From the NCBI GenBank assembly GCA_040393865.1, contig JBEBTF010000001.1:7729-71728 (forward strand): a stretch of 64,000 nucleotides of DNA, given 5' to 3'. Source of the DNA: Planctomicrobium piriforme. GTDB taxonomy: Bacteria > Planctomycetota > Planctomycetia > Planctomycetales > Planctomycetaceae. Of the stretch, positions 1,685-34,547 are shown piece after piece. The notes beneath the pieces were generated by a model. It was given only the letters and a program-made list of their open reading frames with translations, ran no database searches and was not told the origin of the DNA. The translations under genes and the position numbers were made by a program. Position 1 is the stretch's first letter. Each line of letters begins with the position of its first letter.

Positions 1685-1915
1685 TTTGGCGAAGTCAATT
1701 CAGTTACAGCTGCAGCAGGAAATTCGAAGTGTGCCTTGGGAATCGAGTCAGGTGGCCGCTTGTGACCATCCTGATTGAATCGCAATCTGTTTGCATTCGT
1801 CAGGGTTTAGGGCAAATTGAAATTCACAGTCTGACGCCGAAAACACAGCAGATTGAGTGCCACTGCGTCTAAAAATGGCCTTTTGGTTAAGAATTTGATC
1901 CACAATTAAACGGGC

Positions 1916-6196: not shown

Positions 6197-6520
6197 GACG
6201 GTGCCAGGTGCGATCCTGCTCTCCTTCCTGTTAGAGCAATGTCTAAATAGATCACGCCAGTGTTCTCACGCAGAAACTGGACGGAATTTAGGACATCTCT
6301 GCGAGGCAGAATTGTCTATTGAAACTTGTGACGTCGTTGACACTGAATTCAAACAATCTGGTTACAGGCGGTGTTCAAGTCGCTTGCGAATGTTTGTGCC
6401 AGTGTCAGGCTGTGTCAGTGTTTATCGACGGCAGGAAGGCGGATCTTCCGCTAATTCAGCAATTTCCACGGTGCGCCAGCGGTTTCGTTCGCGGAGAAAA
6501 TTGGCGTCTTTGTGTAACTG

Positions 6521-6588
6521 AAAAAACAAGAAGACGCGGCAAGGTCCCCTCAAAGCTCCCAGCTTCTCCTTGCCGCGTCTCTTGTTTT
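6521..6588 (-). terminator. long-stem intrinsic terminator
   Basis: AAACAAGAAGACGCGGCAAGG / CCTTGCCGCGTCTCTTGTTT, with a T6 tract on the minus strand. Confidence 0.65.
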
Positions 6589-7121
6589 ATTTCGAAGAAA
6601 TCTCTTACTCGAAGTGAGAAATATCACGGGCCCGACTTCGGAGATCTTCCAAAAACTACGTCGCCGATCTGGAGAGTCAAGTAGAAAAAAGAAGCTGCGT
6701 AGAAATGGTGAATTCGGTAAACAAGGGTTCGTTTTAAAGAGCGGCTTTCGGAATAGAGTCCGATTGAGTATCCGGCTTGTTCGCGGAGCCCGCTGTTTTC
6801 AGAGAACAGCTTCCTCTGAAAAACTGCTTGTTGAATCTCTTTGCGTGAAGGATTCTCGTTTAAAACGGTGCACGCCTGAGGCAGTTAATGTGAAAAACTC
6901 CGCTTCATTTGAAACGGAGTTTTTGAAAACCGACGACCTGAAAGAGAATTGCAAACGCCAACTGACAGGCCTGCCAACTTTTGCAAGCAGGCCAGTGAAC
7001 TCGAAGAGGTGTTTGTGCTTCCTTCAGTGCAATGCATTGTCCCGGATGGAGTTGCGTTGCTTCTACCGGATTTGATCGGTCGAGACGTTTGCCCTGCGGT
7101 CAGCTGTGAGACCGAATCGGC

Positions 7122-7424
7122 TTAGAAGACGTCAAGTGTATAATGGTGTCCCCAGTGGTATGGCTTCTTTTCTGGATAGAAGTTGTACCAGTCCTTGTTG
7201 TACACCGGGATCTGTCGCTGTTGCGGATACCGGTAGTACAAGTGGTCGTAGCTCTGGTTCTGTGCCTGAAAGTTGTGTGGATAATACACATACGGGTAGT
7301 AGTAGAACCGCTGCCAGTTGGTTGGCTGGCCTGGCGGTGCCGCCTCGACATTGGAGGTTCCGACAACGGAAAGAGCCATGATGGCAGCCGCAAACAGACC
7401 GGCGGTCACGGTACGCCTGATCAT
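7122..7424 (-). CDS. small secreted Tyr/aromatic-rich protein of unknown function
   Basis: AGGAG SD 8 nt before the ATG at 7424; signal peptide ending VEA; mature part WQRFYYYPYVYYPHNF...GHHYTLDVF. Confidence 0.8.
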   Translation of the reverse strand: MIRRTVTAGLFAAAIMALSVVGTSNVEAAPPGQPTNWQRFYYYPYVYYPHNFQAQNQSYDHLYYRYPQQRQIPVYNKDWYNFYPEKKPYHWGHHYTLDVF

Positions 7425-7548
7425 AGATAGCACTCCTTTGCCTCAACGTATGCAATTGTCACGAAATCTCATCGTGATGTGGACATAGACACTGTTAGGG
7501 AAGATCGGCTAAAAGCGTCTTGCACAACAGGTAATTTCGGGAGATTCG

Positions 7549-8832
7549 ATGCAACCGTTACGATTCCAGTCCCGCCATGAACTGGCTTCCCTCATGAACC
7601 TCTGTCGATCTGTTTGTTTCCTGACGATGTCTCTTTTTTCGCTGATCCGTCAGGGAGAGGGGTTCCGCTGCGCCGCGGTGCCTGCGTTCCTGGTTTTGAT
7701 TCACTTGCTGCTTGCTGAGTCGAGTTTTGCTCAGGGAGTGATCGTTCAGGAGATTTCGGCAGACGATATTCGTCCGCACATCATGTTCCTTGCCGCGGAT
7801 GAGCAGCTCGGGCGTCGTAATGCCGGCAAGCAACGGGCGAGAGACTATATTGTCTCTCAGTTTGCCGAGGTGGGATTGAGTCCCCTGTTTGATGGCGATT
7901 GGCGGCAATCGGTCCCGATTCGAGTCTCCACAGGTCGGGGAGAAGAAGGACAAGAAGGCCAGAATCTGGGCGGTTTCATTGAGGGAACCGATCCGGTACT
8001 GAAGGACGAATGGATCGTGATCAACGCGCATTACGATCATTTGGGCGTTCAATGGGGCCGGATTTATCCCGGAGCTGATGACAACGCGTCAGGCGTTTCA
8101 ATGCTGATTGAGGTCGCCAGAAAGTTGAAACAGGCCCCGTTGAAACGGAGTGTTGCTTTCGTGGCTTTTGACTTTGAAGAATCGCTCTTATGGGGATCGC
8201 GATGGTTCGTCGGCCATACGCCAATGCCGTTGGATCAGATCAAGCTCAGCATCACTGCAGATATGATTGGTCGTTCACTGGGAGGGCTGGGGATTCCAAC
8301 GGTCTTCCTTCTCGGAGCCGAACATTCCGAGATCGTCAGAGATGCAATCTCTGGTGTCCGCGTTCCAACGGGATTGGAAATTGCTCAACTGGGAACGGAC
8401 ATGATTGGAACCCGAAGTGATTACGGGCCATTTCGTGACCAGCAGATTCCTTTCCTGTTTTTCTCGACCGGAGAGCATCCAGACTATCACACGCCATATG
8501 ACAAGCCGGAACGAATCGAGTACGACAAGGCAGCCAGAATTTGTACGGTGATTCAACGACTGGTTTCTGAAATCGGCAATGGGGAAAACTCACCGGTCTG
8601 GGAGCGTGCAGTCTATCAGAAACTTGAAGAGGCAATCGCCGTTCATCGCGTAACAGAACACCTCGTCGAAGCGGATCGAGTCGGGGACGTGGAGCTTTCT
8701 GGGATGCAACGGTTCTTTGTGACTCAGGTGAAAAACAAGACTGGCTATATGATCCGTGCAGGCCGAGTGTCAGACGAAGAGCGAAAATGGGTCTCTCGCA
8801 TGGCACTGATGCTCATTGCGACGGTGTTCTGA
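7549..8832 (+). CDS. M28 family metallopeptidase (secreted; start codon uncertain)
   Basis: Metal-ligand motifs NAHYDHLG, GADDNASG, FDFEE, ADMIG, HPDYHTP. Confidence 0.9.
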   Translation: MQPLRFQSRHELASLMNLCRSVCFLTMSLFSLIRQGEGFRCAAVPAFLVLIHLLLAESSFAQGVIVQEISADDIRPHIMFLAADEQLGRRNAGKQRARDYIVSQFAEVGLSPLFDGDWRQSVPIRVSTGRGEEGQEGQNLGGFIEGTDPVLKDEWIVINAHYDHLGVQWGRIYPGADDNASGVSMLIEVARKLKQAPLKRSVAFVAFDFEESLLWGSRWFVGHTPMPLDQIKLSITADMIGRSLGGLGIPTVFLLGAEHSEIVRDAISGVRVPTGLEIAQLGTDMIGTRSDYGPFRDQQIPFLFFSTGEHPDYHTPYDKPERIEYDKAARICTVIQRLVSEIGNGENSPVWERAVYQKLEEAIAVHRVTEHLVEADRVGDVELSGMQRFFVTQVKNKTGYMIRAGRVSDEERKWVSRMALMLIATVF

Positions 8833-19339: not shown

Positions 19340-20851
19340 ATGAGTTCCGGAAGCCAGTTTCAGTCAGAACCGAATTCATTGGATTCCAGTGTCTCCTCGT
19401 TGGGTTCTCGCGCTGTGGGAGTACAGCTTGGGGAATTCACCCTGCTGAGGCGGCTTGGGAAGGGGGGCATGGCAGAGGTTTGGCTGGCAGAGCAGACAAG
19501 CCTGAAACGCAACGTTGCCCTGAAGCTGCTGCGTTCAGATCTCATGGAAGATGAAAGCTATGTGAAGCGTTTTCAGGCCGAGGCCAAGGCGGCAGCCGGT
19601 TTGAATCATTCAAATATTGTGCAGGTGTACGCGGTTGGCTACGAGCGGGGGCAGCACTTTATTGTTCAGGAATACGTGCATGGTCAGACCTTAAAGGCCT
19701 TGTTGCAGAAACGAGGCCCGCTCGATCTCAATCTGGCTCTGATGATTATGCGTCAGGTTGCTGCGGCCCTGCAGGCTGCTGGCGAGCGAGGGATTGTTCA
19801 CAGGGACATCAAACCTGAAAATATCATGCTCACCAGAAAGGGCGAGGTGAAGGTTGCCGACTTTGGGCTGGCTCAGTTGCAGGGAGGGGAACGGCTTCAT
19901 CTGACTCAGGAAGGGGTCACGATGGGAACGCCGCTCTACATGAGTCCAGAACAGGTCAGTGGCCAGCCTGTCGATCAGCGTAGTGATATCTATTCGTTCG
20001 GGGTAACGTGCTATCACATGCTGGCGGGGGTTCCTCCGTTTCAAGGAGAGAATGCTGTCAGCATTGCTGTGAAGCATCTCCACGAACAGCCAAATCCAAT
20101 TGGAGAAGTGCGACCTGACTTACCGGCGGCGGTCTGTCAGATGATTGATCGAATGATTGCCAAGCAACCTGCCGATCGGTATCGCGATGCGGCGGCAATT
20201 GTGAATGATGTTCGCAAGCTGGCAAAAGCACTCAAGACAGGTGAATCGATTGATGACCTGATTGGGGATGGAACCCGTCCTGCCTCGGCATTCCCTGTGA
20301 GCCGACCGGTTCCGGTTCTTATTTCGATGTGTGTTGCAGTTCTTTTGTTGAGTGCTGTCGCTGGCTGGCTGGCACGTCCAAAGGTTCCTGAAACCAGTGA
20401 AAATCCTCTCGGGGATGTTCCTTCATTTAACACGGCCCGAGAACAGTACATCTATGCAATGTTCGCCAGTGATGATGAAGATGCATTCAAGGCGGTGATT
20501 GCGAGATTCGAAGATCCTAATGACAAAATCTGGCGGCGGCGTGCTCAAGAGCAGTTGGCGCTGCTGTATCTGAAAGATCGCCGTCGTGAGATGGAGGCTC
20601 GGGAACAGTTGCAGGTTCTGCGGAATAAAGTCGATCCTGGTGATCCAGAGCTGATTGCTGAAGCAAGAATCGGCGAGGCCTATCTCGATGCCGTTCACAA
20701 CAATGTGGATATGGCAAGGCGGAAGCTGCAGTCTGGGACCGATGATTTTGATCAATTGCTCACTGGAAGCTGGAAGCAGCTTGCTCAGGAAGTGCGGCAA
20801 CTGACAGCAGTTCCTCCGGCCCAGCCTCGTGGCACTCGCGATATGCCATAG
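19340..20851 (+). CDS. membrane-anchored Hanks-type Ser/Thr protein kinase
   Basis: LGKGGMAEV, VALK, HRDIKPEN, DFG, GTPLYMSPEQ, SDIYSFG; a TM helix followed by a helical extracytoplasmic domain. Confidence 0.95.
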   Translation: MSSGSQFQSEPNSLDSSVSSLGSRAVGVQLGEFTLLRRLGKGGMAEVWLAEQTSLKRNVALKLLRSDLMEDESYVKRFQAEAKAAAGLNHSNIVQVYAVGYERGQHFIVQEYVHGQTLKALLQKRGPLDLNLALMIMRQVAAALQAAGERGIVHRDIKPENIMLTRKGEVKVADFGLAQLQGGERLHLTQEGVTMGTPLYMSPEQVSGQPVDQRSDIYSFGVTCYHMLAGVPPFQGENAVSIAVKHLHEQPNPIGEVRPDLPAAVCQMIDRMIAKQPADRYRDAAAIVNDVRKLAKALKTGESIDDLIGDGTRPASAFPVSRPVPVLISMCVAVLLLSAVAGWLARPKVPETSENPLGDVPSFNTAREQYIYAMFASDDEDAFKAVIARFEDPNDKIWRRRAQEQLALLYLKDRRREMEAREQLQVLRNKVDPGDPELIAEARIGEAYLDAVHNNVDMARRKLQSGTDDFDQLLTGSWKQLAQEVRQLTAVPPAQPRGTRDMP

Positions 20852-20931
20852 GCCGGTTTAATTTCTCCTGCCCCTAAGAGTGCCGTTTTGATAAGAAAAA
20901 GGCTGCGAATCTCCGGATGTGGGGGCTTGGC

Positions 20932-21906
20932 TTAGAATTCTCCCAGGAGATTTCCGTCGTTGTGTAGACCCAGGTTCTGCCAGGTTGTCAGGCTGATATT
21001 ATCACCGATGAATCGAGCCGCACCGTCGCCGAGCAGAACTTGAACTCCGCCAGTGTGCATGCTGCGTGCACTGAAAATCATTCTGCGATTGTTAAAAGCT
21101 GTATATCGTCCAAAGCAGGCCGGCTGGCTGTTTGCATCGCAACATGACACACGTGTGTCATCCGGAACCGATGTGTTCGGGGAATAATCAACGTGGATAA
21201 ATGGTCCTTCAGGGTAATGCATAATTCCACGCATGTCGTTTGCATTTGGCCCCCCTTTTCTCAGTTCGCCGATGAGAATGGTGTTACTCATTCCGTCTGT
21301 GAAATCTTGGGATGCGACGCGGGAGTTGCATTCAAAGGGCCCAACCTTCGCACGGATAGTCGGGTTTGGTGACCACGGGGGGCTGGTGGTGTTGTCGAAG
21401 TTAAGTAATGGACCGATTCCATTGTTCGCTCCATAATTCCCGCGAGCGTATGTGCCGAATGCGAGGACATTGTTTGTGACGTCTGATGGGCAGGTCAGCG
21501 ATGTCACTGAGGTGCTGGTGACGATGAAGTTTGGGCTGCTGGTCGAAGTGCTACCGAAGTTCAGGTTCAGATTTGCTTTGTTGTATAACACCGCCTGATC
21601 AATATACGGAAAGAGTTGGAGAATCCAGGTCGATTGGTTGTGGGTAGTTGGAGGTGCCTGCACATACCCCGGCGGAAAGACTCGGTGCGTGTCCATGTAG
21701 TTATGCAGGGCCACTCCCAGTTGCTTCAAATTATTCTTGCATTGGCTGCGTCGAGCCGCTTCGCGTGCCTGCTGTACTGCGGGCAGCAGCAAGGCAATCA
21801 AGATCGCGATGATGGCAATGACGACCAGCAATTCAATGAGGGTGAAGCCGCTCCCTCTTGCTTCGCTTTTGGCACTATTTCTGAGAAGCCAGGTTCTTTG
21901 ATTCAT
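20932..21906 (-). CDS. DUF1559 domain protein with prepilin-type N-terminus and H-X9-DG motif
   Basis: [43 protein letters not shown] ... CPSD ... DGMSNT ... HTGGVQVLLGDG. Confidence 0.95.
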   Translation of the reverse strand: MNQRTWLLRNSAKSEARGSGFTLIELLVVIAIIAILIALLLPAVQQAREAARRSQCKNNLKQLGVALHNYMDTHRVFPPGYVQAPPTTHNQSTWILQLFPYIDQAVLYNKANLNLNFGSTSTSSPNFIVTSTSVTSLTCPSDVTNNVLAFGTYARGNYGANNGIGPLLNFDNTTSPPWSPNPTIRAKVGPFECNSRVASQDFTDGMSNTILIGELRKGGPNANDMRGIMHYPEGPFIHVDYSPNTSVPDDTRVSCCDANSQPACFGRYTAFNNRRMIFSARSMHTGGVQVLLGDGAARFIGDNISLTTWQNLGLHNDGNLLGEF

Positions 21907-22521
21907 GACGCATCCTTCTGTTTGGAAATGGATTGCGAAAATGTCGAATCGGCGAGCGATAGAGATGCTGAATTAAATAATTCAAGGCGCCATCAGAAGG
22001 CTGCCCCCGATATGAGCAAGATTCTTCTTCGAGACTTAATTGAATCGATGCTTGTTGATGTGTTTCTTTTGTGACTGTATCAACAGCGTTGGAGCTTTGA
22101 AAGGAAATTCCTCGAATTTAGCTGAATCTGTAACTGTGCTGCGTAGGGCGTGAAGGGAAGGCCTTTGACGCATTAACTCGTTGTAACGTTGTGTCTAACG
22201 TTCGTGATGGGTCTGAAGCGACGTTCCGTTTTGGAAGAATTGTGGAGCTTAGGAGAATGTAAATAAGCCGCTGCTACAGCGAGATGGTTTGCTCTTGTCA
22301 ATACGACAGAATTTCAGGTTGGAGTTGTGGGGAGATAGGGGAGTTGTAAGGAATGTTAATTGCATTTTGGGTAATGATCGCTTGCAGATTATTGCATCTG
22401 AAGGCTCGGGGATATGAAGCGATTGCCTGATAGGATGTTGATCAGTGTTTACTTATGGCAACGCTCTTGCTCTGCATCTTCTCTTGTTTTTCGTTCGTCC
22501 CTGGATGCGTATGAGGTCTTG

Positions 22522-23529
22522 ATGATGTCTTTAGATCTGCGTCGAAAGCACACTCAAGTGAGAGCCTTCCCCCGCTCTCACCGTCAGTCTCTGAAAATAA
22601 CGGGGTTCACACTGATCGAGTTGCTGGTGGTCATTGCGATCATCGCGATCTTGATTGCGTTGCTGCTGCCCGCGGTGCAGCAGGCCCGGGAAGCGGCCCG
22701 GCGCAGTCAGTGCAAGAACAACCTCAAACAATTGGGGCTGGCCTTGCACAATTACCATGACGCCCACGGACTTTTTCCGCCGGGAAGTGTTGGGTACGTC
22801 TATACTGATGGAGGAAATGTGCCGGTCCGAGCAACCTCTTTTGGCCCGCTGGCGCTATTGCTTCCTTACATGGATCAGGGGACTATCTACAATCTCATTG
22901 ACTTCACAAGAAATTTTTGCGATCCCGTTAACACACCCCAGATGAAGACCGTTTTGTCGACGTTGATTTGTCCGTCATACAGTGGACCACCAACCTCGAG
23001 TCAGGGGCAATGGTATCAGCTCTCGAGTCGCACACGTTTTGAAGCAGCGATCACGAACTATCTCGCTGTTATGGGATATAATACTTCTGGAGCAACTCAA
23101 ACGGCTGCAACAGCGCCGCCGCAAAGCATGAGAGGAACGTTCTGGGCGAATAGCAATACTCGGATGCGTGACTTCATTGACGGAAGCTCAAACACCCTCG
23201 TCTACGGTGAATATCGTCCGACAATTCTCGTCGATGTAGGTTGGGGGACGTGGGATTACGACAGTCGATGGGCGCCATGGGCTGGTGGCATCATGATTGA
23301 GGGAAGTATTGGTGTTCGGGGAATGAGATACGGCCCGAACCAGATTATCCCTAAAGGGGCATATGCAGTTAATGATGCCACGTTGCTGCCGTTCAGCTCT
23401 GGCCATACCGGCGGGGTCCACATGTTGCGAGGAGACGGTGGTACCGTTTTCGTTAACAACAATATCGACATCGGTATCTGGCGTGGATTGTCGACCGTCG
23501 CCGCAAATGAAGTGATTGGCGAGTTCTAA
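22522..23529 (+). CDS. DUF1559 domain protein with prepilin-type N-terminus and H-X9-DG motif
   Basis: Same N-terminal signature; DGSSNT; [12 protein letters not shown]. Start moved to the ATG at 22522, after GAGGT. Confidence 0.93.
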
Positions 23530-23785
23530 TCGAAAATCGGCCGAACTGGCTCCATTCAACGATGCGACTTCCTCGCGATGATTAAGCGGCTGCTTTGAGG
23601 AATCTGCTGAAGCATGGAGATGGTGTCGCTTGAGATGCCTCCATGTCGACATGCTCGATTGGGATGCGACGGACGCGGCGAATTCTTGTCGCGTCTGTCT
23701 TTATGAAATGCTTTTACAATAGCGATATGACTAGGCTGTCATTGATGAATTGATGACATTGCCTGTTTTGATGAGGAATTGATTG

Positions 23786-24238
23786 ATGAAGTGTCATGCA
23801 ATCTGGACCGGAATCAGTTCGATTTTATGTCTGTCTCTGCTGATTGTTTCCGGATGCAGTCGTGGACCAGAAGGGCCGGTGATTGTTCCAGTTAAGGGAG
23901 TCGTGATTTACAAAGGCAAACCACTGGAAGGTGGTCAGGTTTCTTTTATCCCAGATCGAAAGAAAGGGACCACCGGGCCGATGGCGATGGGGAACATCAA
24001 TGAAAAAGGAGAATTTGTTCTACGAACAACGAATCCTGACGATGGGGCGATTGTTGGAGCTCATAAAGTCGTCATTAGCTATTACAAATCGACTCCATTT
24101 GATCCCAATAATCCAAGTCCGCCGTTAAAGGATATTTCGCTCATTCCTGCTGTCTACGCAGATGAAACCACAACGACACTGACTGCAGACGTCACTACGA
24201 ACAAAGACAACAATGTCTTTACATTCGAGCTGAAATAG
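23786..24238 (+). CDS. small lipoprotein (carboxypeptidase regulatory-like / transthyretin-like fold), the usual DUF1559 partner
   Basis: Lipobox VSGC; VPVKGVVIYKGKPL, DGAIVGAHKVVI, IPAVYAD..TTTLTADV...FTFELK. Confidence 0.85.
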   Translation: MKCHAIWTGISSILCLSLLIVSGCSRGPEGPVIVPVKGVVIYKGKPLEGGQVSFIPDRKKGTTGPMAMGNINEKGEFVLRTTNPDDGAIVGAHKVVISYYKSTPFDPNNPSPPLKDISLIPAVYADETTTTLTADVTTNKDNNVFTFELK

Positions 24239-24347
24239 TCTGTTGGGGTCAGAACAGACGCAACGGTTGCATATGTTTTAACTCAGGTAGGGAAGTATTC
24301 CCGCGGGAAGAAAGATGCTGCACGGTGTCAGAGTTGGTCAACTCGAT

Positions 24348-25832
24348 TTACGAGACGGTGCCACTCTCTGGCTCACCGTCCGTGTGCGAATCCACTGACA
24401 GATTGAGCCCGCGAAGTTTGCTTCTGAGCGTCATCCTGGCGATGCCGAGTTTTTTGCAGGCCTGTACCTGATTGCCATCAACATTCTGCATTACTTCCTC
24501 AAGGATAATGCGATCTACGATATCACTGACTTTGTGATAGATGTTGGGGACATCGTCCTTCAGGAGTTGCTGCACAAACGACCTGACGTTGAATTCGCCT
24601 TCAGGTTCGTCTGGGATGGCGGTGGATTTTGAGTTGACTCCCGTTGGTTCAGCTTTGACTTTACTGATTGCGTTTGGAAGACAGTCAATCGTGATGATGT
24701 CGCCTGTTGAACGCGCCATGGCAAAGCGGATCGCACTCTCCAGTTCGCGGACATTGCCTGGCCAGTGATATGCCTGGAGTACGTTCATCGTTTTCGGAGT
24801 GATCGTATGAACTGGACGATCAAGGCGGTGATTGAACTTCTTGATGAAGTATTTCACCAGAGCCGGGATATCTTCCAGACGTTCCCGGAGCGGCGGAACC
24901 TGTAGCAGGAACACGTTCAGGCGATAGTAAAGGTCCAGACGAAACGCCCCGGAGTTAATCAGCTTGGGGAGATCCTTGTTCGTTGCCGCGATAATTCGGA
25001 CGTTCGTTTTGACGGTCTGTGTGCCCCCAAGTCGCTGGAAAGACTGGTCCTGCAATAACCGTAACGCCTTGGCTTGAGTCGCGAGGCTCATGTCGCCAAT
25101 TTCGTCGAGGAAGATCGTTCCCTCATGGACTTGTTCAAACTTCCCGATGCGTCGTTGATCCGCCCCGGTGAATGCTCCGGCTTCATGCCCGAACAATTCG
25201 CTTTCAAGAAGTGTTTCAGGCAAGGCCGCACAATTGATTGCGAGAAATGGTTTCTGACTGCGCCGGCTATAGTGGTGGATGGCTCTGGCAACGAGTTCTT
25301 TTCCGGTCCCGCTTTCCCCCAGAATCAGCGCCGGGCCATCTTGAGGAGCGATTCGTCCAATGGTCTTATAGACCTCCTGCATCGGAGGTGACTGACCGAT
25401 AATTCGATCTGTCTCTCGGTCAACATCGTCAGTGTCTTTATCGACAACGACCGGGACATGGCTGAGGTGGCTGACAGTGATGGCCTTTGTGACGACGGAC
25501 TCTAACCTTAATACGTCGACAGGTTTGAGCAGGTATTCAAACGCACCGCGCCGCATGGCTTCAATGGCCGTCTCTGTGGATGCGTAGGCTGTTACGATGA
25601 TGACCGGCAGTCGGGGATCGATCTTTGCGATACGGTCATAGGCATCGAGCCCTGACAGGTCCGGAAGTCGGACGTCAAGAATGACGACGTCTGGGTGGGC
25701 AGACGCGACCAGATGAATGCCTTCCTTTGCTGTCGGTGCGGAGATGACTTCCAGTGTGTCACTCTGCAAACATTCTTTGATCGAGAAAGCAATGTTGGGT
25801 TCATCATCGATGACAAGAAGTTTTGCTTTCAC
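24348..25832 (-). CDS. NtrC-family sigma54 response regulator
   Basis: LLVIDDE, ILDVRLP, GESGTGKE, GAFTGA, IFLDEIGD, WPGNVRELE, C-terminal HTH; GTGA overlap with the kinase stop. Confidence 0.95.
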   Translation of the reverse strand: MKAKLLVIDDEPNIAFSIKECLQSDTLEVISAPTAKEGIHLVASAHPDVVILDVRLPDLSGLDAYDRIAKIDPRLPVIIVTAYASTETAIEAMRRGAFEYLLKPVDVLRLESVVTKAITVSHLSHVPVVVDKDTDDVDRETDRIIGQSPPMQEVYKTIGRIAPQDGPALILGESGTGKELVARAIHHYSRRSQKPFLAINCAALPETLLESELFGHEAGAFTGADQRRIGKFEQVHEGTIFLDEIGDMSLATQAKALRLLQDQSFQRLGGTQTVKTNVRIIAATNKDLPKLINSGAFRLDLYYRLNVFLLQVPPLRERLEDIPALVKYFIKKFNHRLDRPVHTITPKTMNVLQAYHWPGNVRELESAIRFAMARSTGDIITIDCLPNAISKVKAEPTGVNSKSTAIPDEPEGEFNVRSFVQQLLKDDVPNIYHKVSDIVDRIILEEVMQNVDGNQVQACKKLGIARMTLRSKLRGLNLSVDSHTDGEPESGTVS

Positions 25833-27514
25833 GTGGACATCTCTGCGTGAGGAGGGATCTGCGGTGTAAGTGGAGATTCGGAGACGCGTGGCAAGCGGAT
25901 CTGAAAGGACGCGCCGCCTTCCGGGCGATTGAATGCGTCAACCGTTCCGCCGTGGTCATGGACGATTCGCTGGCTGATGGGAAGCCCAAGACCGGTGCCT
26001 GTTTCTTTGGTACTGACAAATGGTTCGAAGATACGTGGGTGCAGATCGGCTGAAATACCTGTGCCGCGGTCCAACACTTCAATCGTCACCCAGCGTTGTG
26101 AATCCCCTTTTGTAGAGCTGACGGATTCTCTCAGGGTCACTTCGATTTCTCCGCCATCAGCTTGTGCATCGAGACTGTTGATAAACAGGTTTAACAGGAC
26201 CTGTCGTAGCCTTGTTGGATCTGCGCTCACTTCGATTTGATAGTCAGGTGGATGGAAGGTGAGCGTCACATCCTGCAATGATGCTCTGGCAGAGATGAGA
26301 TCGAGAGCCTGCTTGATCACCGAGGAGACACTGACCGGTTTTCTCTCAAGAGGTTGAGGGCGAGCAAAATCAAGAATCTCCTGAATCAGGCCTTCCATGC
26401 GGCGAATCTCTTCGTCCATGACCTCAAGCTGGCGCGGTGTCATGCTGGGAGAATCTGGTCGCGAAAGAGCCTTCTGGACCAACATTTTCATAGGCATCAA
26501 TGGGTTTCGCAGTTCATGAGCCAAGCCCGCTGCGAGTTGTCCGATTGCTGCAAGTTTCTGGTTTCTCAGACTCTCTTTCTCGCGTTGCTGCAGTCGCTCG
26601 ACAATGACGGCGACCTGGCTTTCGACTTCCTTCAAACCGATCTCGAGTCCACCTAATCCACCGGTTGTTGAGACTCTGACCGGGCCGACGACCTCTTGCA
26701 GTTTGTCGGCAGTACCACGAACCGAAATATCCAGATTGAGAATCTTTCGGCGAAGTCCACGAGTGATTCCGATACCGGCGACCAGCCCTGCGAGCCCTCC
26801 ACAGACTCCCAGAAGGAGGAACGCCTCGGTCATCTGTGTGGAGGTCTGCAGGTTTGCTAAATGTGCCCGATCTGCCGCGAGTTCATTTGTCTGGACATAG
26901 GCGCGAATGGGAAGGCGGACCTGTTCGTTAAGAATTTCATCAAGTTCCATCGCTGCTTTACGTTGCGATGCATCTGATTCGATATCGCGAACATTGGCCA
27001 GAACTTCAAAGAAATGGTGACAGCTTTTGTCGAGTTCGGTCCAGATTTCCTTCGCGCTGCGAGGATTTCCAATCTGGTTTTGAGACGTTTTGGCGTTGGC
27101 ATATTCGCCAAGATTGTGAAGGTGTTCGTTCACCTGCGAATGTAGGAGCTCGATTTCATCGAGATAGTCATTATCCCGCTTCATAAGATACTGGCGCAGG
27201 CATTGCCTGACGTCGCTGACAACAAGCAGAAGCCGTTGCGCTTCGAGTGAATTATGAAATTCGTGATTCACCAAATCGGAGACGGACGCCTGATGCTGCT
27301 GAACATTCCAGGCCGCCAGACTTCCCAAACCAACCAGCAGCAGACTGATCAGCAGCATCGGGGCAAAAATATGCAACAGAAAACGACTATCCATGAACAT
27401 TCCTGAGCGGGAATGTCCTTTGGTTTCGTGAAGATCTGTTTCAGGAACAGATGTGGATGGGGCTGCCTGCGACTCGCGCGTCTGCATCCCGTCTGCCTCC
27501 GTCGGAATGTTCAA
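25829..27514 (-). CDS. membrane sensor histidine kinase with helical periplasmic domain (start uncertain)
   Basis: Two TM helices; LAAGLAHELRNPL; NLFINSLDA; DRGTGI; FEPFVSTKETGTGLGL. Confidence 0.93.
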   Translation of the reverse strand: MNIPTEADGMQTRESQAAPSTSVPETDLHETKGHSRSGMFMDSRFLLHIFAPMLLISLLLVGLGSLAAWNVQQHQASVSDLVNHEFHNSLEAQRLLLVVSDVRQCLRQYLMKRDNDYLDEIELLHSQVNEHLHNLGEYANAKTSQNQIGNPRSAKEIWTELDKSCHHFFEVLANVRDIESDASQRKAAMELDEILNEQVRLPIRAYVQTNELAADRAHLANLQTSTQMTEAFLLLGVCGGLAGLVAGIGITRGLRRKILNLDISVRGTADKLQEVVGPVRVSTTGGLGGLEIGLKEVESQVAVIVERLQQREKESLRNQKLAAIGQLAAGLAHELRNPLMPMKMLVQKALSRPDSPSMTPRQLEVMDEEIRRMEGLIQEILDFARPQPLERKPVSVSSVIKQALDLISARASLQDVTLTFHPPDYQIEVSADPTRLRQVLLNLFINSLDAQADGGEIEVTLRESVSSTKGDSQRWVTIEVLDRGTGISADLHPRIFEPFVSTKETGTGLGLPISQRIVHDHGGTVDAFNRPEGGASFQIRLPRVSESPLTPQIPPHAEMST

Positions 27515-27815
27515 TGTCGTCTTAATGAACGGAGGGTGAAGTAACCCCGGTCATTAAGCGGGACGAGAATAGCAACCGCCTGTGAAGATGTGATCACAGA
27601 CAATCGATATCAACGTTCTGTTCAATGTCCAAATTCTAGCCGTTGAATCAGAGAGTGTCTGGAGATTTTCGTGTCTACGTTTGTCGTTTTTCGATTTCCT
27701 CGATGATGCGTGGACGAAAATGCTTTGTCTAAGTGATTCTGGAGAAAACCATTGCAGGAAGCTTACAGGAAGATGACATCGTGGCGGAGGTGAAAAAAGA
27801 AATGGACAAGTGATT

Positions 27816-27831
27816 TGGTATGTTCTCTGCA
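27816..27831 (+). promoter_or_regulatory. sigma54 promoter upstream of the SbtA-family gene
   Basis: TGGTATGTTCTCTGCA has GG-N10-GC spacing and lies ~120 nt before the ATG; divergent from the kinase/bEBP operon. Confidence 0.6.
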
Positions 27832-27953
27832 ACAAGCGAATCTCATCAGACTTGTTGCAACGCAAAACGACGAACCTGTCGTTTTTGTAATAGAACTTCC
27901 TGCCTCATGCTTTGTCAGACTCATAAGTCTGATCCCGCCTGTGGAGTCGATCA

Positions 27954-29366
27954 ATGGTTGAGAGTCTTCTGAGTCACTGCTTCTTACTCGCAAGTGGAGG
28001 GGGCGACCCGGTCGCAACGGCAGGATTTCCTGTTCCTTCCGGACATCAGCTTTCTCTCTTCCAGGAGTTCGGGCACAACTTCATTCACAATCTTTTCAAG
28101 CCCTTGCTGCTGTTCTTCTATGCAGGCTTTCTAATTCCAATCCTGCGGGTGAAGTTCGAGTTTCCGAAGGTGCTCTATCAGTCGATTACAATTTATCTGC
28201 TCGTTGCTATCGGCTGGCACGGCGGGGAAGAACTGGCGAAGTTGAGCTCCGGGAGTTTGATGCAGGCTCTTGGATTTGTGTTGATCGGGATCGTGACCAA
28301 TTTCACAATTGGCTTCGTTGCCTATCTGTTGCTGCGATCGCTCACGAAACTCCGTCGCGTCGATGCTGCAACCGTGGCAGGATATTATGGCTCCGATTCG
28401 GCTGGGACGTTTGTAACGTGCATCGGTGTGTTGACGGCATCGAAGATTGCGTTTGCTCCTTACATGCCCGTTATGTTGGCAGCGATGGAGATTCCTGGAT
28501 GCCTGGTGGCATTGCTGATCGTGTCCCGATTACGCCAGAAAGGAATGGACACTTATGGCAACATGCCAGATGAATCAGGATATGTGCGTCGTGCAGCAAG
28601 CGGTCTCAAACTTGAAACTGTAAGGCAGACCGTCGTCGCCCGTGAACGAAATTTGACCTATGCCCGATCAAGCAAAACGACAGTCGCTGTCGGTTCAGGT
28701 TCCGGTCTCTCGGATGAAGAGATTGAGCATCATGCCGAAGCCGAACAGTTTGAGGATGACATGGCCCTTCAGGAGCCTGGTCACGATGCTCTGGTTCCTT
28801 CGAAGAGGGGCTTCAATGCAGAGCTGCTGCATGAAGTTTTCTTCAACCCTGGGATTTACTTGTTGTTCGCTGGGATCGTGATTGGTTTCATCAGTCAGTT
28901 GCAGGGAAGTGCAGTCACAAAGCCAGACGACCGCTTGTTTGTGGACCTGTTCCCACCGATTCTGTGTCTGTTCCTGCTGGAGATGGGAATGACCGCATCC
29001 AATAAGTTGAAAGACCTTGCTGTTGCAGGTTGGAAGTTCGTCGCCTTCGCACTGGTCGCACCGAATCTCTTTGCAACTCTTGGAATTTTGATTGCTCACG
29101 CATATTCCATGATTCTGAACCAGCCCTTTGAAATTGGAACGTATGCATTGTTCGCTGTGTTGTGTGGATCGGCGTCATACATCGCCTTACCTGCTGTTCA
29201 GCGAATGGCGATTCCGGAAGCAAGTCCAACACTTCCGCTCGCTGCGTCACTGGGATGTACATTCAGTTACAATGTTACGGTCGGAATTCCGGTTTATATT
29301 CTGATCGCTAAGCTTGTGGTGTCAGCTTATCCTGTCGCTGGCCCTCTCTTGCAGGCGAGGATGTAG
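27954..29366 (+). CDS. sbtA: sodium-dependent bicarbonate transporter, SbtA family
   Basis: IYLLVAIGWHGG, AATVAGYYGSDSAGTF, AAMEIPG, LFLLEMGMTA, GSASYIALPA, SLGCTFSYNVTVGIP; two repeated membrane halves. Confidence 0.85.
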   Translation: MVESLLSHCFLLASGGGDPVATAGFPVPSGHQLSLFQEFGHNFIHNLFKPLLLFFYAGFLIPILRVKFEFPKVLYQSITIYLLVAIGWHGGEELAKLSSGSLMQALGFVLIGIVTNFTIGFVAYLLLRSLTKLRRVDAATVAGYYGSDSAGTFVTCIGVLTASKIAFAPYMPVMLAAMEIPGCLVALLIVSRLRQKGMDTYGNMPDESGYVRRAASGLKLETVRQTVVARERNLTYARSSKTTVAVGSGSGLSDEEIEHHAEAEQFEDDMALQEPGHDALVPSKRGFNAELLHEVFFNPGIYLLFAGIVIGFISQLQGSAVTKPDDRLFVDLFPPILCLFLLEMGMTASNKLKDLAVAGWKFVAFALVAPNLFATLGILIAHAYSMILNQPFEIGTYALFAVLCGSASYIALPAVQRMAIPEASPTLPLAASLGCTFSYNVTVGIPVYILIAKLVVSAYPVAGPLLQARM

Positions 29367-29397
29367 AGTAAAATCGCTTACAGTCATTGAGGTTTTC

Positions 29398-29440
29398 AGG
29401 AGTTGCTTTTCGATGAGGAAAGCAACTCCTGCTTTTTTTT
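29398..29440 (+). terminator. intrinsic terminator after sbtA
   Basis: AGGAGTTGCTTT / AAAGCAACTCCT followed by T8. Confidence 0.85.
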
Positions 29441-29478
29441 CGGAGAAGAGTCTTCAGGAATAGTCAGGCCGAAACGGT

Positions 29479-32400
29479 CTACGAACTGGACTGAGCACTC
29501 TGAGCAATGTCGTTACGAGCCCCTGTCGATTCTTGCATGATAAGTTGGTAAAGCATATTAGTGCTTACCGGTTTAATGAGATGGCAATTGAATCCGGCTT
29601 TGGCTGACAAGGAGCGGTCTGATTCTTGACCATATCCGGTGAGTGCCACCAGTTGAATGTGATCCAAGTCTGGATTGGAACGGACCATCTCTGCAAACTG
29701 ATAGCCGTCGATATGAGGCATTCCGATGTCAGAGATGATGATGTCCGGTCGGAATTTTTGGGCGAGTTCCAAACCGGTCATGGCATTGTCTGCGGTATAG
29801 ACTGTTTGTCCCAGTTTCTCCAGAAGCTTGCTGACCATATATCGTGCAGCACTGGTATCATCGACGACAAGCACACGCCGCGCTGGCAATGCTTCAGGTT
29901 CAAGTCTCTGGGGGGCAGCCTGTCGAATTGTCTGCGGCTGGATGCGGGGGAGGAGAACACTGAATGTTGATCCTGTCCCAGAGGCAGCTGGACGCACAGC
30001 GACTTCTCCCTGGTGGAGTTCAACCAGTCGCTTTACAAGTGTCAGGCCGATTCCAAGTCCTCCTTGAGAACGATTGATTGAGCGGTCAACCTGCGTAAAT
30101 GGTTCGAAGATCAGTTTGCGCATGGATTCCGGAATCCCGATACCGCTGTCCGTGACTTCAACCGTGACATGATTTTCCTCCAAGAGAATGTGAAGGCTGA
30201 TTTCCCTGTGGGGATCGCTGTATTTTGCTGCGTTGTTCAGCAGGTTGGAGAAGACCTGAGAAAGCCGCGTCTGATCCGCATCCAGCCAGATCGGAGTTTC
30301 CGGCGGAGTGTAATTGACACGATGTTTGTTGGCTGCGATGACGAACTCGCTGGTTTCCAGAGCACTTTTGAGCACGGTGGTCAGTTCAATTTGATCGCGG
30401 CGGAGTTCAATTTTTCCCCGAGTGATTCGAGAGACGTCGAGGAGATCATCAACGAGCCGGACGAGTTGTTGAACTTGTCTTTGAATGACATTCTGCAGTT
30501 CCGTGCATGTCTCTGGGGAGTTTTTCCCGAGTTGCAGGACCTCGATCGCGTTGTGGATGGGAGCGAGAGGATTGCGCAGCTCATGAGCGAGCGTTGCCAG
30601 AAACTCGTCTTTGCGGCGATCTGCATCCTGCAATGCGGCCACGGCTCTTTTCTGTTGATCAATATCAATGACGACACCGATCATTTTTCTCGGGCAACTG
30701 ACGCTGTCATAAAGAATCATTGCCTGACACTTGAGCCAGCGTGTCTGACCGTCTGAGTGTGTGCACTCATATTCAATATTGAGTTCTGAATCCCCTTCTG
30801 CCAGGCATTGCTCAATTTGTTGCCGGAGCCGATTCGCTGATTCTGGGGGACTGCGGTTAATCCAGTCCTCCAGTGTGCCGGAAAACTCTTCGAGGCTGAT
30901 GCCGTACAACAGGCAGAGTTCTTCCGTCCAGATTAACTGGCCCTCTGTGATTCGCCATTCAAAACTTCCGATTCGACCAGCCTGTTGTGCCAGTCGCAAG
31001 CGATATTCGTTCTGGCGTAACTCTCTGGAGATTCTGGCTCGTTCAATCGATTCCCAGCATCGCAGTGCGACGTGTTGAACGAGTTCAATTTCCTCAGGTT
31101 GCCAGACTCGGGGACGCATCTGATTCACGCCGAGTGAGGCAATCAGACGCCCTGACTTGTGTAAGGGAACACAAATCAGCGAGGCGATTTTTAAGCTGCG
31201 ATATTGTGCGAGTTCTTTAGCGGACCGATTCCCGCTTTCGACATCATTGCAGACGAACGTTTTTCCGGCCATGACCGAATCGGCGAGGTCTTCGCTGATG
31301 TCGGTCAGACGATACCGTCCAACGATACTGCTGACCCCTTCGTTGTAGTCGCCTGTCAGATTGAAGGTGTTCTCGTCTCGTTCAAACTCGGCATATGCAC
31401 AGCGATTCACTTCCAGATATTGGGCCAGCAGTCTTGCTGCTGTCTGCGTGATTTCCTGGGGAGAAACTTCACCTTGAACCGCGTCATCCAATTGAACAAG
31501 GAAGCGATTTCTGGCCTCTGAAATGGATTGCTGGTGAATGTCATCGCAGAACCCGACCCATTCGGTGATGACACCTTGTGCATCAATGACAGGAGTACTT
31601 CTCGAACAGACATGGCGATATTCGCCAAATCGGTTTCTCAAACGATACTTGGCCGAGTACGAGAGGCTCTGGTCAATACTTGTCTTCCATGTTTCGAAAA
31701 CACCTTCCCGGTCATCAGGGTGAATTGCTTGTAACCAGCCCAATCCACGGAACTCCTCCCATGGCTGGCCTGTGTAGTTTGACCAGGATTGGTTGTCGGG
31801 AACCATTTCGCCTTTGGAATCTGTTCTCCAGATTGCGATAGGGATTGTGGTCAGAACCGTTCGGTAACGACTTTCGTTTTCCTTTAATTCCTGTAAAGCG
31901 CGCGCCTTCTCAATGTGAATCGAGGCTTTGTCCGCAATCTGCGTCATTAGCCGGATTTCGTCGAGAGTCCAGTTACGAGGTTTCTGCTGTTGGACTCCCA
32001 GCAAGCCGATGGTCTCGTCACCTTTCCGGAGAGGACAGACAAGACAAGGGAATGGACCGGTCATCTTCGTTGTCGACGACTTGATTTCGTCGGCGGATTC
32101 CGGCTCTGAACTCCATTCAAAGTAGTCTGGTGTTTTTTTCTCCGGAGTGATTGGCTTGGGAGTATTAATTGCCAGCGTCATTCCATTGCGGAGAATTTCG
32201 ATCTGCGACTCATTGATGTGCTTGAGGTCCCTCGGAGGCAGGTTTTGGGCGGGATATTTGAACCACTCCTGTTTGATTCCGATCGATTGTGGGGCAGGGT
32301 AAAGTTCCGCATAAAAACAGTGATCGCCGTCCAGTGATTCTCCCAGGTATTTCGTTGCTGTCGCCATGACGACGTCAGGATCATCCTGATTTCGTGTTGC

Positions 32401-32913
32401 TTCGCTGAATTCGTACAAGGTTCGTAACTGTTGTTCGCTACGGAGTGCACTGCTTGCGATGCGGCTGGCTTCGATCGTGTGGACTGCTTGCTGAGCGTAA
32501 AGATCCAGCATTCGTAATTGAATCTGGTCGGGGCGGTGTGGACTACGGAAATGAGTCGAGAGGATTCCGACAAGTTTTCCGTTGCGGTTAATTAACGGCG
32601 TTGCCTGCACTCCGCGGTAGCCTGCTGCAATCGCGGCATCGCGGAATGGCATATAGGACTCATCTTGCAGGATGTCAGGCACGATCACTCTTTGGCGATG
32701 CTTCAGTGCGCGACCACAAGCAGACCCGTCAAACTCTGTGATTCCATGAAAGTGTTCGAGCATGCTGTCGTCGAAACCACGATGCGCTGCGACAACGAGA
32801 GTCTGCGTCTCGGGATTGAGCATTTGAATATTGCCCATCGACGCGTCCAGCATCTCAATCGCCGCACTCAGGATCGCATCCAGTTCAAGATTGATTTCGA
32901 CGAGTTTTTTCAA
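29479..32913 (-). CDS. cytoplasmic hybrid histidine kinase (GAF-GAF-PAS-GAF-PAS-HisKA-HATPase-REC)
   Basis: GAF motif GSACGRAL; PAS WLQAIHPDD; FLATLAHELRNPLAPI; NNAAKYS; GGLGIGL; REC VLVVDD..SDIGMP. Confidence 0.93.
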   Translation of the reverse strand: MKKLVEINLELDAILSAAIEMLDASMGNIQMLNPETQTLVVAAHRGFDDSMLEHFHGITEFDGSACGRALKHRQRVIVPDILQDESYMPFRDAAIAAGYRGVQATPLINRNGKLVGILSTHFRSPHRPDQIQLRMLDLYAQQAVHTIEASRIASSALRSEQQLRTLYEFSEATRNQDDPDVVMATATKYLGESLDGDHCFYAELYPAPQSIGIKQEWFKYPAQNLPPRDLKHINESQIEILRNGMTLAINTPKPITPEKKTPDYFEWSSEPESADEIKSSTTKMTGPFPCLVCPLRKGDETIGLLGVQQQKPRNWTLDEIRLMTQIADKASIHIEKARALQELKENESRYRTVLTTIPIAIWRTDSKGEMVPDNQSWSNYTGQPWEEFRGLGWLQAIHPDDREGVFETWKTSIDQSLSYSAKYRLRNRFGEYRHVCSRSTPVIDAQGVITEWVGFCDDIHQQSISEARNRFLVQLDDAVQGEVSPQEITQTAARLLAQYLEVNRCAYAEFERDENTFNLTGDYNEGVSSIVGRYRLTDISEDLADSVMAGKTFVCNDVESGNRSAKELAQYRSLKIASLICVPLHKSGRLIASLGVNQMRPRVWQPEEIELVQHVALRCWESIERARISRELRQNEYRLRLAQQAGRIGSFEWRITEGQLIWTEELCLLYGISLEEFSGTLEDWINRSPPESANRLRQQIEQCLAEGDSELNIEYECTHSDGQTRWLKCQAMILYDSVSCPRKMIGVVIDIDQQKRAVAALQDADRRKDEFLATLAHELRNPLAPIHNAIEVLQLGKNSPETCTELQNVIQRQVQQLVRLVDDLLDVSRITRGKIELRRDQIELTTVLKSALETSEFVIAANKHRVNYTPPETPIWLDADQTRLSQVFSNLLNNAAKYSDPHREISLHILLEENHVTVEVTDSGIGIPESMRKLIFEPFTQVDRSINRSQGGLGIGLTLVKRLVELHQGEVAVRPAASGTGSTFSVLLPRIQPQTIRQAAPQRLEPEALPARRVLVVDDTSAARYMVSKLLEKLGQTVYTADNAMTGLELAQKFRPDIIISDIGMPHIDGYQFAEMVRSNPDLDHIQLVALTGYGQESDRSLSAKAGFNCHLIKPVSTNMLYQLIMQESTGARNDIAQSAQSSS

Positions 32914-33494
32914 TGTTGACCTACAGATCTGTGGAAAGCGGATGTAGTCGAAGATCTCAGCTGAGATGAAGCATCATCTATGATGACTCAATTTTGAGCG
33001 GTTTATGAATCAGAAAATGCGACTGAACAGGAATTTCCAGGTGGAAATCGGAGCTTGGTCGGTGAATCTCCCGTGAATCGCAGCTTGGCCGACTTCTCAA
33101 TCGTTCGCTGAATTCTTCTCCGCGAAGATATCTCTGATTGATGCCTCGACAAGACTTTGTTCCTTGCTCAAATCCAGAATGTGCTGGAAGGCAAACAAAA
33201 ACGGAAAGCCAATTTTTGACCGTTATGTAGAGCGAAATCAATTTGCGAGCCCTTCCAGGCAAGTTGGCATGGCTTGAATCCAATGTTCCGATCCGGTGCA
33301 AAGACCTGCGGAAATTGCTCTAATGGCTCATGTAACAGAAGTGGTGGAGTCCAAAGACAGGCGTTGGACTCTTGGGAAGACTGGCTTTCATTTTGTTGAA
33401 AGCCTTTGTGTTCGGCCTGCGTCTGCGAGTTCCAGATCACTCGGTGCAGAGTGACTGGGTCGTGTAAGTGCTTATTTAGTAAAGTGTTGTTGAG

Positions 33495-34547
33495 ATGGCG
33501 ATTTCGTACAAAGATGCTGGCGTGGACCTCGATTCGTACGAAGAGGCGATGGCTCGCCTGCCTGCTCTGATGCAGCGCACCCAGACCCCGCGAGTCCTTC
33601 CTTTGATGGGAGGATTTGCTGGATTATTTGGATTAAACGGAGATGGTCGGAAGTACCAGGATCCTGTGCTGGTCTCGGGGACTGACGGCGTCGGTACGAA
33701 AATCAAAGTTGCGATGCTCGCCCAGCGGTACGACACCATCGGGATTGACCTCGTCGGGATGTGTGTCAATGACTGTCTGTGTCTGGGAGCGGAGCCGCTC
33801 TTTTTCCTCGATTATGTCGCTTTGGGACAGGATAATCCTGACCTGACCACCGCCCTGGTTAAAGGGGTCTCCGATGGCTGTTTGCTGGCGAAATCCGCAC
33901 TGATTGGCGGTGAAACTGCGATTATGCCAGACCTGTATGCGCCTGGCGATTTTGATATGGCAGGCTTTTGCGTCGGGGTCGTTGAGCGGGATCAGATTCT
34001 AGACGGCAAGAAGATCCAGAAGGGCAACGTTCTTGTCGGAATCGAGTCATCCGGATTGCATTCCAACGGGTTCAGCCTTGTTCGTAAAATTGTGTTTGGC
34101 GCGGCAGGGCTTGATGTTTCGGCCTTCGTTGAAGAACTCGGAATGACGGTAGGTGACGCCCTGCTGATTCCAACCCGAATTTATGCAGATGTTGTTCAAA
34201 AGTTGCTGGCATTGAAGAACGGCTCTGAGGCTGTTGTGGCAGGGCTGGCTCATATCACCGGCGGCGGCATCGCAGAAAACACTGGTCGTATTATTCCACA
34301 GGGATTGCAGGCCGCAGTCCGTCGCTCAAGCTGGACTGTCCCACCTGTCTTCCAGTGGCTTCAGAAACTCGGAAGTGTCGACCGCGATGAAATGTCTCGT
34401 GTGTTCAACATGGGAATTGGAATGGTTGTGAGCGTCCATCCTGATCACGTGAGTGCAGTTCAGGATGTGGTTCGCGAATGTGGATTTGGTTCTCACATCG
34501 TTGGTGAAGTCGTAGAGGGCACGGAATCCGCAGTGTATGTCGATTAA
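33495..34547 (+). CDS. purM: phosphoribosylformylglycinamidine cyclo-ligase (AIR synthase)
   Basis: SYKDAGVD, GTDGVGTK, GGETAIMP, SSGLHSNGFSL, HITGGG, FNMGIGM. Confidence 0.98.
   Translation: MAISYKDAGVDLDSYEEAMARLPALMQRTQTPRVLPLMGGFAGLFGLNGDGRKYQDPVLVSGTDGVGTKIKVAMLAQRYDTIGIDLVGMCVNDCLCLGAEPLFFLDYVALGQDNPDLTTALVKGVSDGCLLAKSALIGGETAIMPDLYAPGDFDMAGFCVGVVERDQILDGKKIQKGNVLVGIESSGLHSNGFSLVRKIVFGAAGLDVSAFVEELGMTVGDALLIPTRIYADVVQKLLALKNGSEAVVAGLAHITGGGIAENTGRIIPQGLQAAVRRSSWTVPPVFQWLQKLGSVDRDEMSRVFNMGIGMVVSVHPDHVSAVQDVVRECGFGSHIVGEVVEGTESAVYVD

Follow-up and report, generated by a model that had tools for sequence, protein, structure and literature searches.

What would switch on an SbtA-type transporter gene in a bacterium that looks heterotrophic? 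The regulation of inorganic-carbon supply in non-photosynthetic bacteria is poorly known, and the question is raised by a locus in a 64,000-nucleotide stretch of DNA from the planctomycete Planctomicrobium piriforme (hereafter the window: GenBank assembly GCA_040393865.1, contig JBEBTF010000001.1, positions 7,729 to 71,728 of the forward strand). In this locus, the genes for a membrane histidine kinase and an NtrC-type regulator lie divergent from an sbtA gene with a sigma-54 promoter motif. The linkage and the promoter go beyond local chance, and from comparisons of genes and genomes we favour, with slightly better than even confidence, a substrate-transporter switch built like DctB/DctD-dctA and serving, in this case, inorganic-carbon uptake.

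A preliminary description of the window, made from the letters alone, had proposed a coupled kinase-regulator operon on the minus strand, and the open reading frames (ORFs) and Pfam results agree with it. The regulator (24348-25832, minus strand, 494 aa) combines a receiver domain (REC; Response_reg, E 1.8e-27), an AAA+ domain (Sigma54_activat, E 6.8e-70, with AAA_lid) and HTH_8 (E 4e-8), and its translation shows both GAFTGA and a Walker A motif (GESGTGKE), features that place it among the NtrC-type sigma-54 enhancer-binding response regulators. Since it scores beneath the cut-off of every named NCBIfam equivalog (NtrC, AtoC, ZraR, GlrR and others), it is, as judged by profile, an unnamed NtrC-type activator. 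The kinase (25829-27514, minus strand; ORF of 561 aa) matches HisKA (E 7.7e-14) and HATPase_c (E 1.6e-26), and its stop overlaps the regulator start by 4 nt, which indicates translational coupling. Translation likely starts at the ATG at 27400, for a protein of about 523 aa, as orthologue alignments begin at M39. The closest named relatives, all titled 'sensor histidine kinase', come from Planctomicrobium sp. SH527 (93%), P. piriforme (59%) and SH661 (55%).

On the opposite strand, the 470-aa product of 27954-29366 (plus strand) matches Sbt_1 (PF05982, Transporter Classification 2.A.83) with an E-value of 9.9e-95 and 317.8 bits. The match spans profile positions 1-307 of 308 and is thus full length, apart from an insertion mid-way; the protein is a long-form SbtA with an inserted acidic cytoplasmic loop of roughly 100 aa. 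An intrinsic terminator follows at 29397-29441 (plus strand), with a 15-bp stem (29397-29431), a 5-nt loop and a T-run, bearing out the earlier view of a monocistronic SbtA-family gene with a strong terminator. In the source genome, which is 80% complete in 311 contigs, this gene is the only Sbt_1 match. Profile searches of the whole contig found no P-II, beta-carbonic anhydrase or RuBisCO match, just as sbtB, carbonic anhydrase and RuBisCO had been described as missing from the window; elsewhere the genome holds four canonical P-II genes, two beta-carbonic anhydrase genes and rpoN (on contig C163). The RuBisCO large subunit was not found in a search across this 80%-complete genome, which looks heterotrophic, as had been presumed.

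Upstream of sbtA, TGGTATGTTCTCTGCA (27816-27831, plus strand) is a strict match to the -24/-12 pattern TGGYAY-N5-YTGCW, with CTGC instead of TTGC as its -12 element; its first base stands 138 nt, and its end 123 nt, before the sbtA ATG. Across both strands of the window, the strict pattern has two matches, at 27816 (plus) and at 1862 (minus). The latter, TGGCACTCAATCTGCT (1847-1862, minus strand), shares the CTGC form of the -12 element. The GG/GC spacing, the upstream position, the presence of rpoN in the genome and the recurrence in orthologous loci are all those of a sigma-54 promoter, so that the GG-N10-GC box originally pointed out at 27816 can be refined to a strict -24/-12 match, conserved upstream of kinase-linked sbtA orthologues. 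Of the 13 kinase-linked sbtA genes, 12 are preceded by a relaxed form of the pattern (based on TGGYAY-N5-CTGCW); at the background frequency of 0.115 per kb per strand, chance would supply about 0.1 per region. The public long-form sbtA loci show it too: 25 of 80 have it between -30 and -250, compared with about 2 by chance. In a MAFFT alignment of five upstream regions, the GG and GC are invariant within Planctomicrobium and the flanking sequence is divergent.

The linkage itself was followed with the sensor part of the window kinase (P0004) as a query against 200 genomes of the same order; counting the window's own, 61 of 201 genomes gave a match, and regions of 8 kb to either side of 40 of these matches were taken and their ORFs clustered. 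Apart from the window, 12 loci have a long-form SbtA next to the kinase, in one of three layouts: divergent, with sbtA between kinase and regulator (L059, L064, L065), or 4 kb apart (L053). At L052, sbtA is reduced to a remnant of 39 aa. Each of the five SbtA-bearing Planctomicrobium genomes searched has its sbtA beside this kinase, and a hand count over the order sample places 13 of about 47 long-form sbtA genes, from four genera, no more than about 5 kb from a kinase of this family. In a wider scan of public genomes, 80 long-form SbtA loci were recovered; the kinase family is present in 15, among them metagenome-assembled genomes (MAGs) labelled Pirellulales, Pirellula and Schlesneria, and a sigma-54 activator lies within 6 kb in about 23. 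Kolteria novifilia has sbtA, kinase and regulator all on one strand. The proposal that the kinase/regulator pair and a sigma-54-promoted SbtA gene belong together thus extends to a conserved unit seen in five Planctomicrobium genomes, four genera and three layouts; gene content, promoter, their conservation and their co-variation across genomes are matters of direct observation.

Such adjacency could in principle be inherited synteny without regulation, the pair controlling other genes and another activator serving the sbtA promoter. Planctomycetes have many sigma-54 activators, some kinase relatives lack a nearby transporter, and in Gimesia an sbtA-sbtB pair has a sigma-54-like promoter with a different kinase/activator pair 3.5 kb downstream. 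Set against this, the linkage outlasts rearrangement across genera while flanking genes differ, and in the divergent layouts a single intergenic region is shared by the kinase operon and sbtA. Two damaged loci were also counted against mere synteny: G146, in which the pair is kept and sbtA is a 39-aa remnant, and G167 (C47:33086-35895), where two open frames make up the kinase match and a TAA interrupts the adjoining sbtA match, so that both look broken. In G167, sensor and target may have decayed together, or the assembly, which is in 540 contigs, may be at fault there. SUF, ABC-transporter, sulfatase and other neighbours of the kinase were considered as members of the unit and set aside, as they look like lineage-specific synteny. 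Taken together, we regard inherited adjacency without regulation as very improbable; because the promoter is conserved and the linkage survives rearrangement, the pair probably regulates sbtA.

Which cargo this regulation serves may be approached through the other neighbours of the kinase family, for which the preliminary description had suggested a gene-neighbourhood survey. The survey shows that the family adjoins not only sbtA but also SulP genes and a SulP-carbonic anhydrase fusion, and that a weakly similar group adjoins DabAB. SulP (PF00916; ORF cluster c3) is the recurrent second neighbour, divergent from the kinase in at least eight loci, several of which carry SbtA as well. The kinase-linked SulP tested (L059) has as its best solved-structure match 6KI1, the entry for BicA. 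Two genomes, G003 (L071:8997-11291) and G004 (L073), encode directly upstream of the kinase-regulator pair, on the same strand, a 764-aa protein in which SulP (Sulfate_transp, 13-381) is fused to beta-carbonic anhydrase (Pro_CA, 579-740), and the sigma-54-like box GGGCATGGAGTTTGCT lies 226 nt upstream of the fusion gene. In G078 (L062:3538-5532), a 664-aa SulP with STAS and a C-terminal PII-like domain (P-II, 558-646) adjoins the family's regulator gene, as if an SbtB-like regulator had been fused onto a SulP transporter. The second kinase group (G077 and G100) has weak similarity in the sensor, at 22-25% identity. On contig C70 of G077 (L184:156-17333), the pair sits between two DabB-like genes followed by DabA and Metallophos on one side and two divergent SulP genes on the other; in G100 the kinase is divergent from a SulP gene. 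DabA is found in 165 of the 201 genomes of the order, and the source genome has three matches.

In a quick maximum-likelihood tree of the kinases, those linked to SbtA and to SulP all fall within one clade of 29 rows (SH-aLRT 97), those linked to the SulP-carbonic anhydrase fusion form a second clade, and those linked to DAB stand on a separate long branch. A second, weak kinase match in the source genome, at the end of contig C53, groups in this tree with the clade linked to the fusion and not with the kinases of G077 and G100.

Two further observations concern SulP genes. In two genera, a conserved protein of 185-190 aa, with two predicted transmembrane (TM) helices and no Pfam match, is encoded after the kinase-linked SulP gene (L059:5219-5791 and L060:11111-11665). 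On contig C30 of the source genome (L101:5300-8535), a gene for beta-carbonic anhydrase (5300-6067) precedes, on the same strand, one for a 707-aa SulP-STAS protein (6412-8535); judged by gene content, this is a probable second inorganic-carbon unit of the genome. It was considered as a sigma-54 target and dropped, having no strict sigma-54 motif.

The SbtA subfamily offers a second line of evidence. The usual SbtA of the phylum is a short form (about 330 aa) with a small gene, of about 100 aa, behind it; four of these small downstream genes were tested, and all match Pfam P-II. The long form can also occur with sbtB, as in a Gimesia-like genus (g4), in which it is 59-61% identical to the window protein. 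Beside the kinase-linked sbtA copies, no PII-like gene was detected when downstream ORFs were tested with Pfam, nor did tblastn with three PII queries find a match downstream of the kinase-linked copies in the public loci. The window sbtA likewise has no SbtB partner encoded downstream, where a terminator and a convergent gene lie, and the P-II genes found in the genome are all canonical. Given this lack of PII-like genes, transcriptional control seems, in the kinase-linked loci examined, to stand where SbtB stands elsewhere. The replacement is not a strict rule, since the Gimesia sbtA-sbtB pair also has its sigma-54-like promoter.

Outside these lineages, long-form SbtA is present in Nitrospirales MAGs (L144, L166, L167, L169, L179; 58-60% identical), in Mycobacterium sp. 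SMC-14 (L174) and SMC-11 (L181), and on the Singulisphaera plasmid pPOT-2 (L152), the identities of all these copies to planctomycete SbtA ranging from 58 to 61%. This distribution suggests horizontal spread of the subfamily. One of the copies from Nitrospirales, which are presumed autotrophs, adjoins a SulP-STAS, a porin-like protein and a REC-AAA+ protein.

Residue evidence on the substrate of the window SbtA is mixed. Its homology to Synechocystis SbtA (7CYE) is apparent from a phmmer match (E 3.8e-20, in two aligned halves), in which S114, S322 and S324 are conserved, Y140 is replaced by Leu and S327 by Ala. In the Synechocystis protein, the docked bicarbonate ligands are S114, Y140, S324 and S327, and S322 belongs to the Na+ site (PMC8352866). 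The loss of two of the four docked ligands is one of the points that speak for another anion as both cargo and signal, most plausibly sulfate, with a real switch in which the kinase reports sulfur limitation and induces SbtA-like and SulP permeases. SulP (PF00916) is a sulfate-permease family, two distant relatives of the kinase (L066 and L068) have an adenosine 5'-phosphosulfate (APS) kinase gene next to them, and QseE, a kinase to which the sensor has weak structural likeness, is reportedly responsive to sulfate and phosphate. Close orthologues of the kinase, on the other hand, adjoin no cys or sulfate-assimilation genes, and the linked SulP best matches 6KI1 (BicA). The SulP-beta-carbonic anhydrase fusion beside the kinase, the DabAB genes beside the second kinase group, the SbtA orthologues paired with PII-like SbtB and the Nitrospirales copies beside SulP-STAS are the evidence that leads us to favour inorganic carbon, our best guess for the cargo and a reasonably probable one; a sulfate switch we consider improbable.

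The signal is a separate matter from the cargo. Between TM1 and TM2 of the kinase (26822-27310, minus strand), an AlphaFold2 (AF2) model places a four-helix bundle flanked by the two TM helices (helices 4-74, 77-103, 116-137 and 143-228), with core pLDDT (predicted local distance difference test) values of 85-93; the periplasmic helical domain anticipated from the translation is thereby given a fold, and with the H-box and HATPase_c, the protein has the build of a membrane sensor kinase around an all-helical periplasmic domain. The sensor domain had zero matches among Pfam sensor families. Foldseek returned weak, generic four-helix matches to QseE, Adeh_2942 and Tar/Tsr (E about 1e-2), and the language-model (Atlas) neighbours, also weak, are 4HB_MCP, CHASE3 and TarH. 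One residue, R65 in P0004 numbering, near the distal end of helix 1, is invariant across 35 kinase relatives. The bundle may respond to bicarbonate, CO2, pH, Na+ or some other anion, none of them singled out by its sequence. That it is a direct receptor for bicarbonate (or CO2/carbonate) is a doubtful idea.

The kinase could instead control sbtA in response to an envelope or ionic cue such as pH, Na+ or membrane stress, SbtA then serving pH homeostasis linked to Na+ and bicarbonate. Planctomicrobium and its relatives come from wetlands and wastewater of variable pH, and the four-helix bundle is generic, with no recognisable anion-binding motif. SbtA and BicA, moreover, are Na+-coupled transporters (PMC8352866). 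The kinase family is nevertheless wired to mechanistically different targets, SbtA, SulP and the SulP-carbonic anhydrase fusion, and the weakly similar group to DAB; because it spans such different inorganic-carbon systems, a carbon-related signal is easier to accept than pH alone, and we hold the ionic-cue explanation to be unlikely.

The favoured switch for inorganic-carbon uptake would operate as follows. A dimeric membrane kinase would sense a periplasmic signal through its four-helix-bundle domain and phosphorylate the NtrC-type partner, which would bind upstream of the divergent promoter and drive, at the expense of ATP, opening of the sigma-54 holoenzyme at TGGTAT-N5-CTGCA, thereby turning on the monocistronic gene for an SbtA-type Na+/HCO3- symporter. 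The signal may be a shortage of inorganic carbon outside the cell, or something that stands in for it, such as pH or Na+, and the likely need is supply of bicarbonate to the carboxylases of a heterotroph. In this scheme we infer both the action of the regulator on the sbtA promoter and bicarbonate as the cargo.

Several points weigh against this scheme. For about half of the kinase relatives, no transporter gene lies within 8 kb and the neighbours are heterogeneous; no alternative recurrent target was found within the same distance of these transporter-less loci. SulP is a multi-anion family, and the APS kinase gene adjoins two of the distant relatives. The window SbtA has low identity to characterised SbtA and retains two of the four docked bicarbonate ligands (S114, S324), and the fold matches of the modelled sensor, by Foldseek, point to no particular ligand. 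Enumeration of k-mers and dyads over 15 promoter regions gave no common palindrome for the activator. Finally, gene calls in the related loci were simple longest-ORF calls, and the related genomes are non-independent samples.

Candidate elements of the intergenic region are of varied standing. Several TGTC/GACA half-sites (27626-27808) had been pointed out upstream of the sigma-54 box, and they were considered as an activator-binding region. Their enrichment in the window is confirmed: the stretch has 7, whereas 183 nt contain 1.7 on average, and 0.28% of windows of the same size reach that count. They are not clearly conserved in the closest relatives, which have 9 in 587 nt and 7 in 618 nt where about 5.5 are expected, and the cluster is kept as a candidate only. 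In other genera (L049, L059, L060, L062, L064), the palindromic hexamer TGGCCA is present in 2-4 copies upstream of sigma-54 boxes, preceding both SbtA and SulP promoters and in some cases spaced 10-13 nt apart; it was not found as a repeat in Planctomicrobium or in many further loci, and its background is 0.48 per kb. It is a lead, a possible activator site of the non-Planctomicrobium clade. Within the region shared with the half-sites, the promoter scan and the MAFFT footprint of the five upstream regions marked TGTCCAAATTCTAGCC (27626-27661, minus strand), a block conserved in four Planctomicrobium genomes and overlapping a sigma-70-like -35 CAGACA and -10 TAGAAT directed into the kinase operon. 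Downstream of the sigma-54 box, a leader of roughly 110 nt with hairpins (27832-27953, plus strand) has a fold z-score of only -1.97. Just 5' of the sbtA ribosome-binding site, it contains the hairpin GTCAGACT-CATA-AGTCTGAT (27914-27933), of which the stems are identical and the loop different in a pairwise alignment with SH527. A scan of 20000-34000 with Rfam at E <= 1 found zero RNA families. Beyond the terminator, a gene for a 1144-aa hybrid histidine kinase of GAF-PAS-GAF-PAS architecture (29479-32913, minus strand) is convergent with sbtA; being shared only with strain SH527, it is probably not part of the sbtA unit.

The family of kinases wired to SbtA, SulP and the SulP-carbonic anhydrase fusion, with a weakly similar group beside DAB, is a concrete candidate for an inorganic-carbon sensor. 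Were the four-helix bundle a direct bicarbonate receptor, it would be without precedent as a two-component sensor dedicated to inorganic carbon; heterotrophic planctomycetes would be switching SbtA, SulP, SulP-carbonic anhydrase and possibly DAB through sigma-54, and the kinase would, in this lineage, have taken over the role of the cyanobacterial SbtB and LysR regulators. Were the signal an ordinary one, such as pH, the locus would be a tidy and unsurprising case of a Dct-type transporter switch. Cultured strains exist, among them Planctomicrobium piriforme, SH527 and SH661. A full-text literature search turned up no account of SbtA or SulP under sigma-54 or two-component control, and none in which a histidine kinase was shown to sense bicarbonate; we know of no such kinase. 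Those regulators of SbtA and BicA that have been characterised come from cyanobacteria, and are LysR-type proteins and SbtB/cAMP.

Comparison with known systems helps to separate what is familiar in this locus from what is not. The cyanobacterial SbtA-SbtB system (PDB 7CYE/7EGK) is regulated by the LysR-type CcmR/NdhR and CmpR. Its transporter and the window SbtA share the PF05982 family and the residues S114, S322 and S324, and planctomycete orthologues with sbtB exist; the window protein differs in lacking sbtB, in its loop of about 100 aa, in the loss of Y140 and S327 and in its probably heterotrophic host, and its locus has sigma-54 with a two-component activator where the cyanobacterial gene has LysR repressors and activators. 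The DAB-linked kinase of G077, distinct by its separate branch and its 22-25% sensor identity, has a different kind of target from the window kinase, which stands beside an SbtA without SbtB. On the sensory side, QseE/QseF (GlrK/GlrR) resembles the window pair in joining a kinase with a periplasmic four-helix bundle to a sigma-54 activator, and the QseE sensor (9m08, 8jwd) is among the best, although weak, Foldseek matches (E 1e-2, 13-14% identity). NarX and NarQ show that four-helix bundles are able to bind a small planar oxyanion, although a P-box-like motif was not identified in the window sensor. The nearest parallel in design is rhizobial DctB/DctD-dctA, in which a sensor kinase and an NtrC-type activator are divergent from a transporter gene with a sigma-54 promoter and the sensor signals whether the substrate of that transporter is available; AauSR and MifSR are related sigma-54 pairs. 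The planctomycete locus has the same periplasmic-sensor kinase, NtrC-type activator and divergent sigma-54 transporter gene, but where DctB has a double PDC/Cache-type sensor and serves C4-dicarboxylates, the planctomycete kinase has a four-helix bundle and a target of the SbtA/SulP type. The new part is the use of the Dct design on SbtA and SulP.

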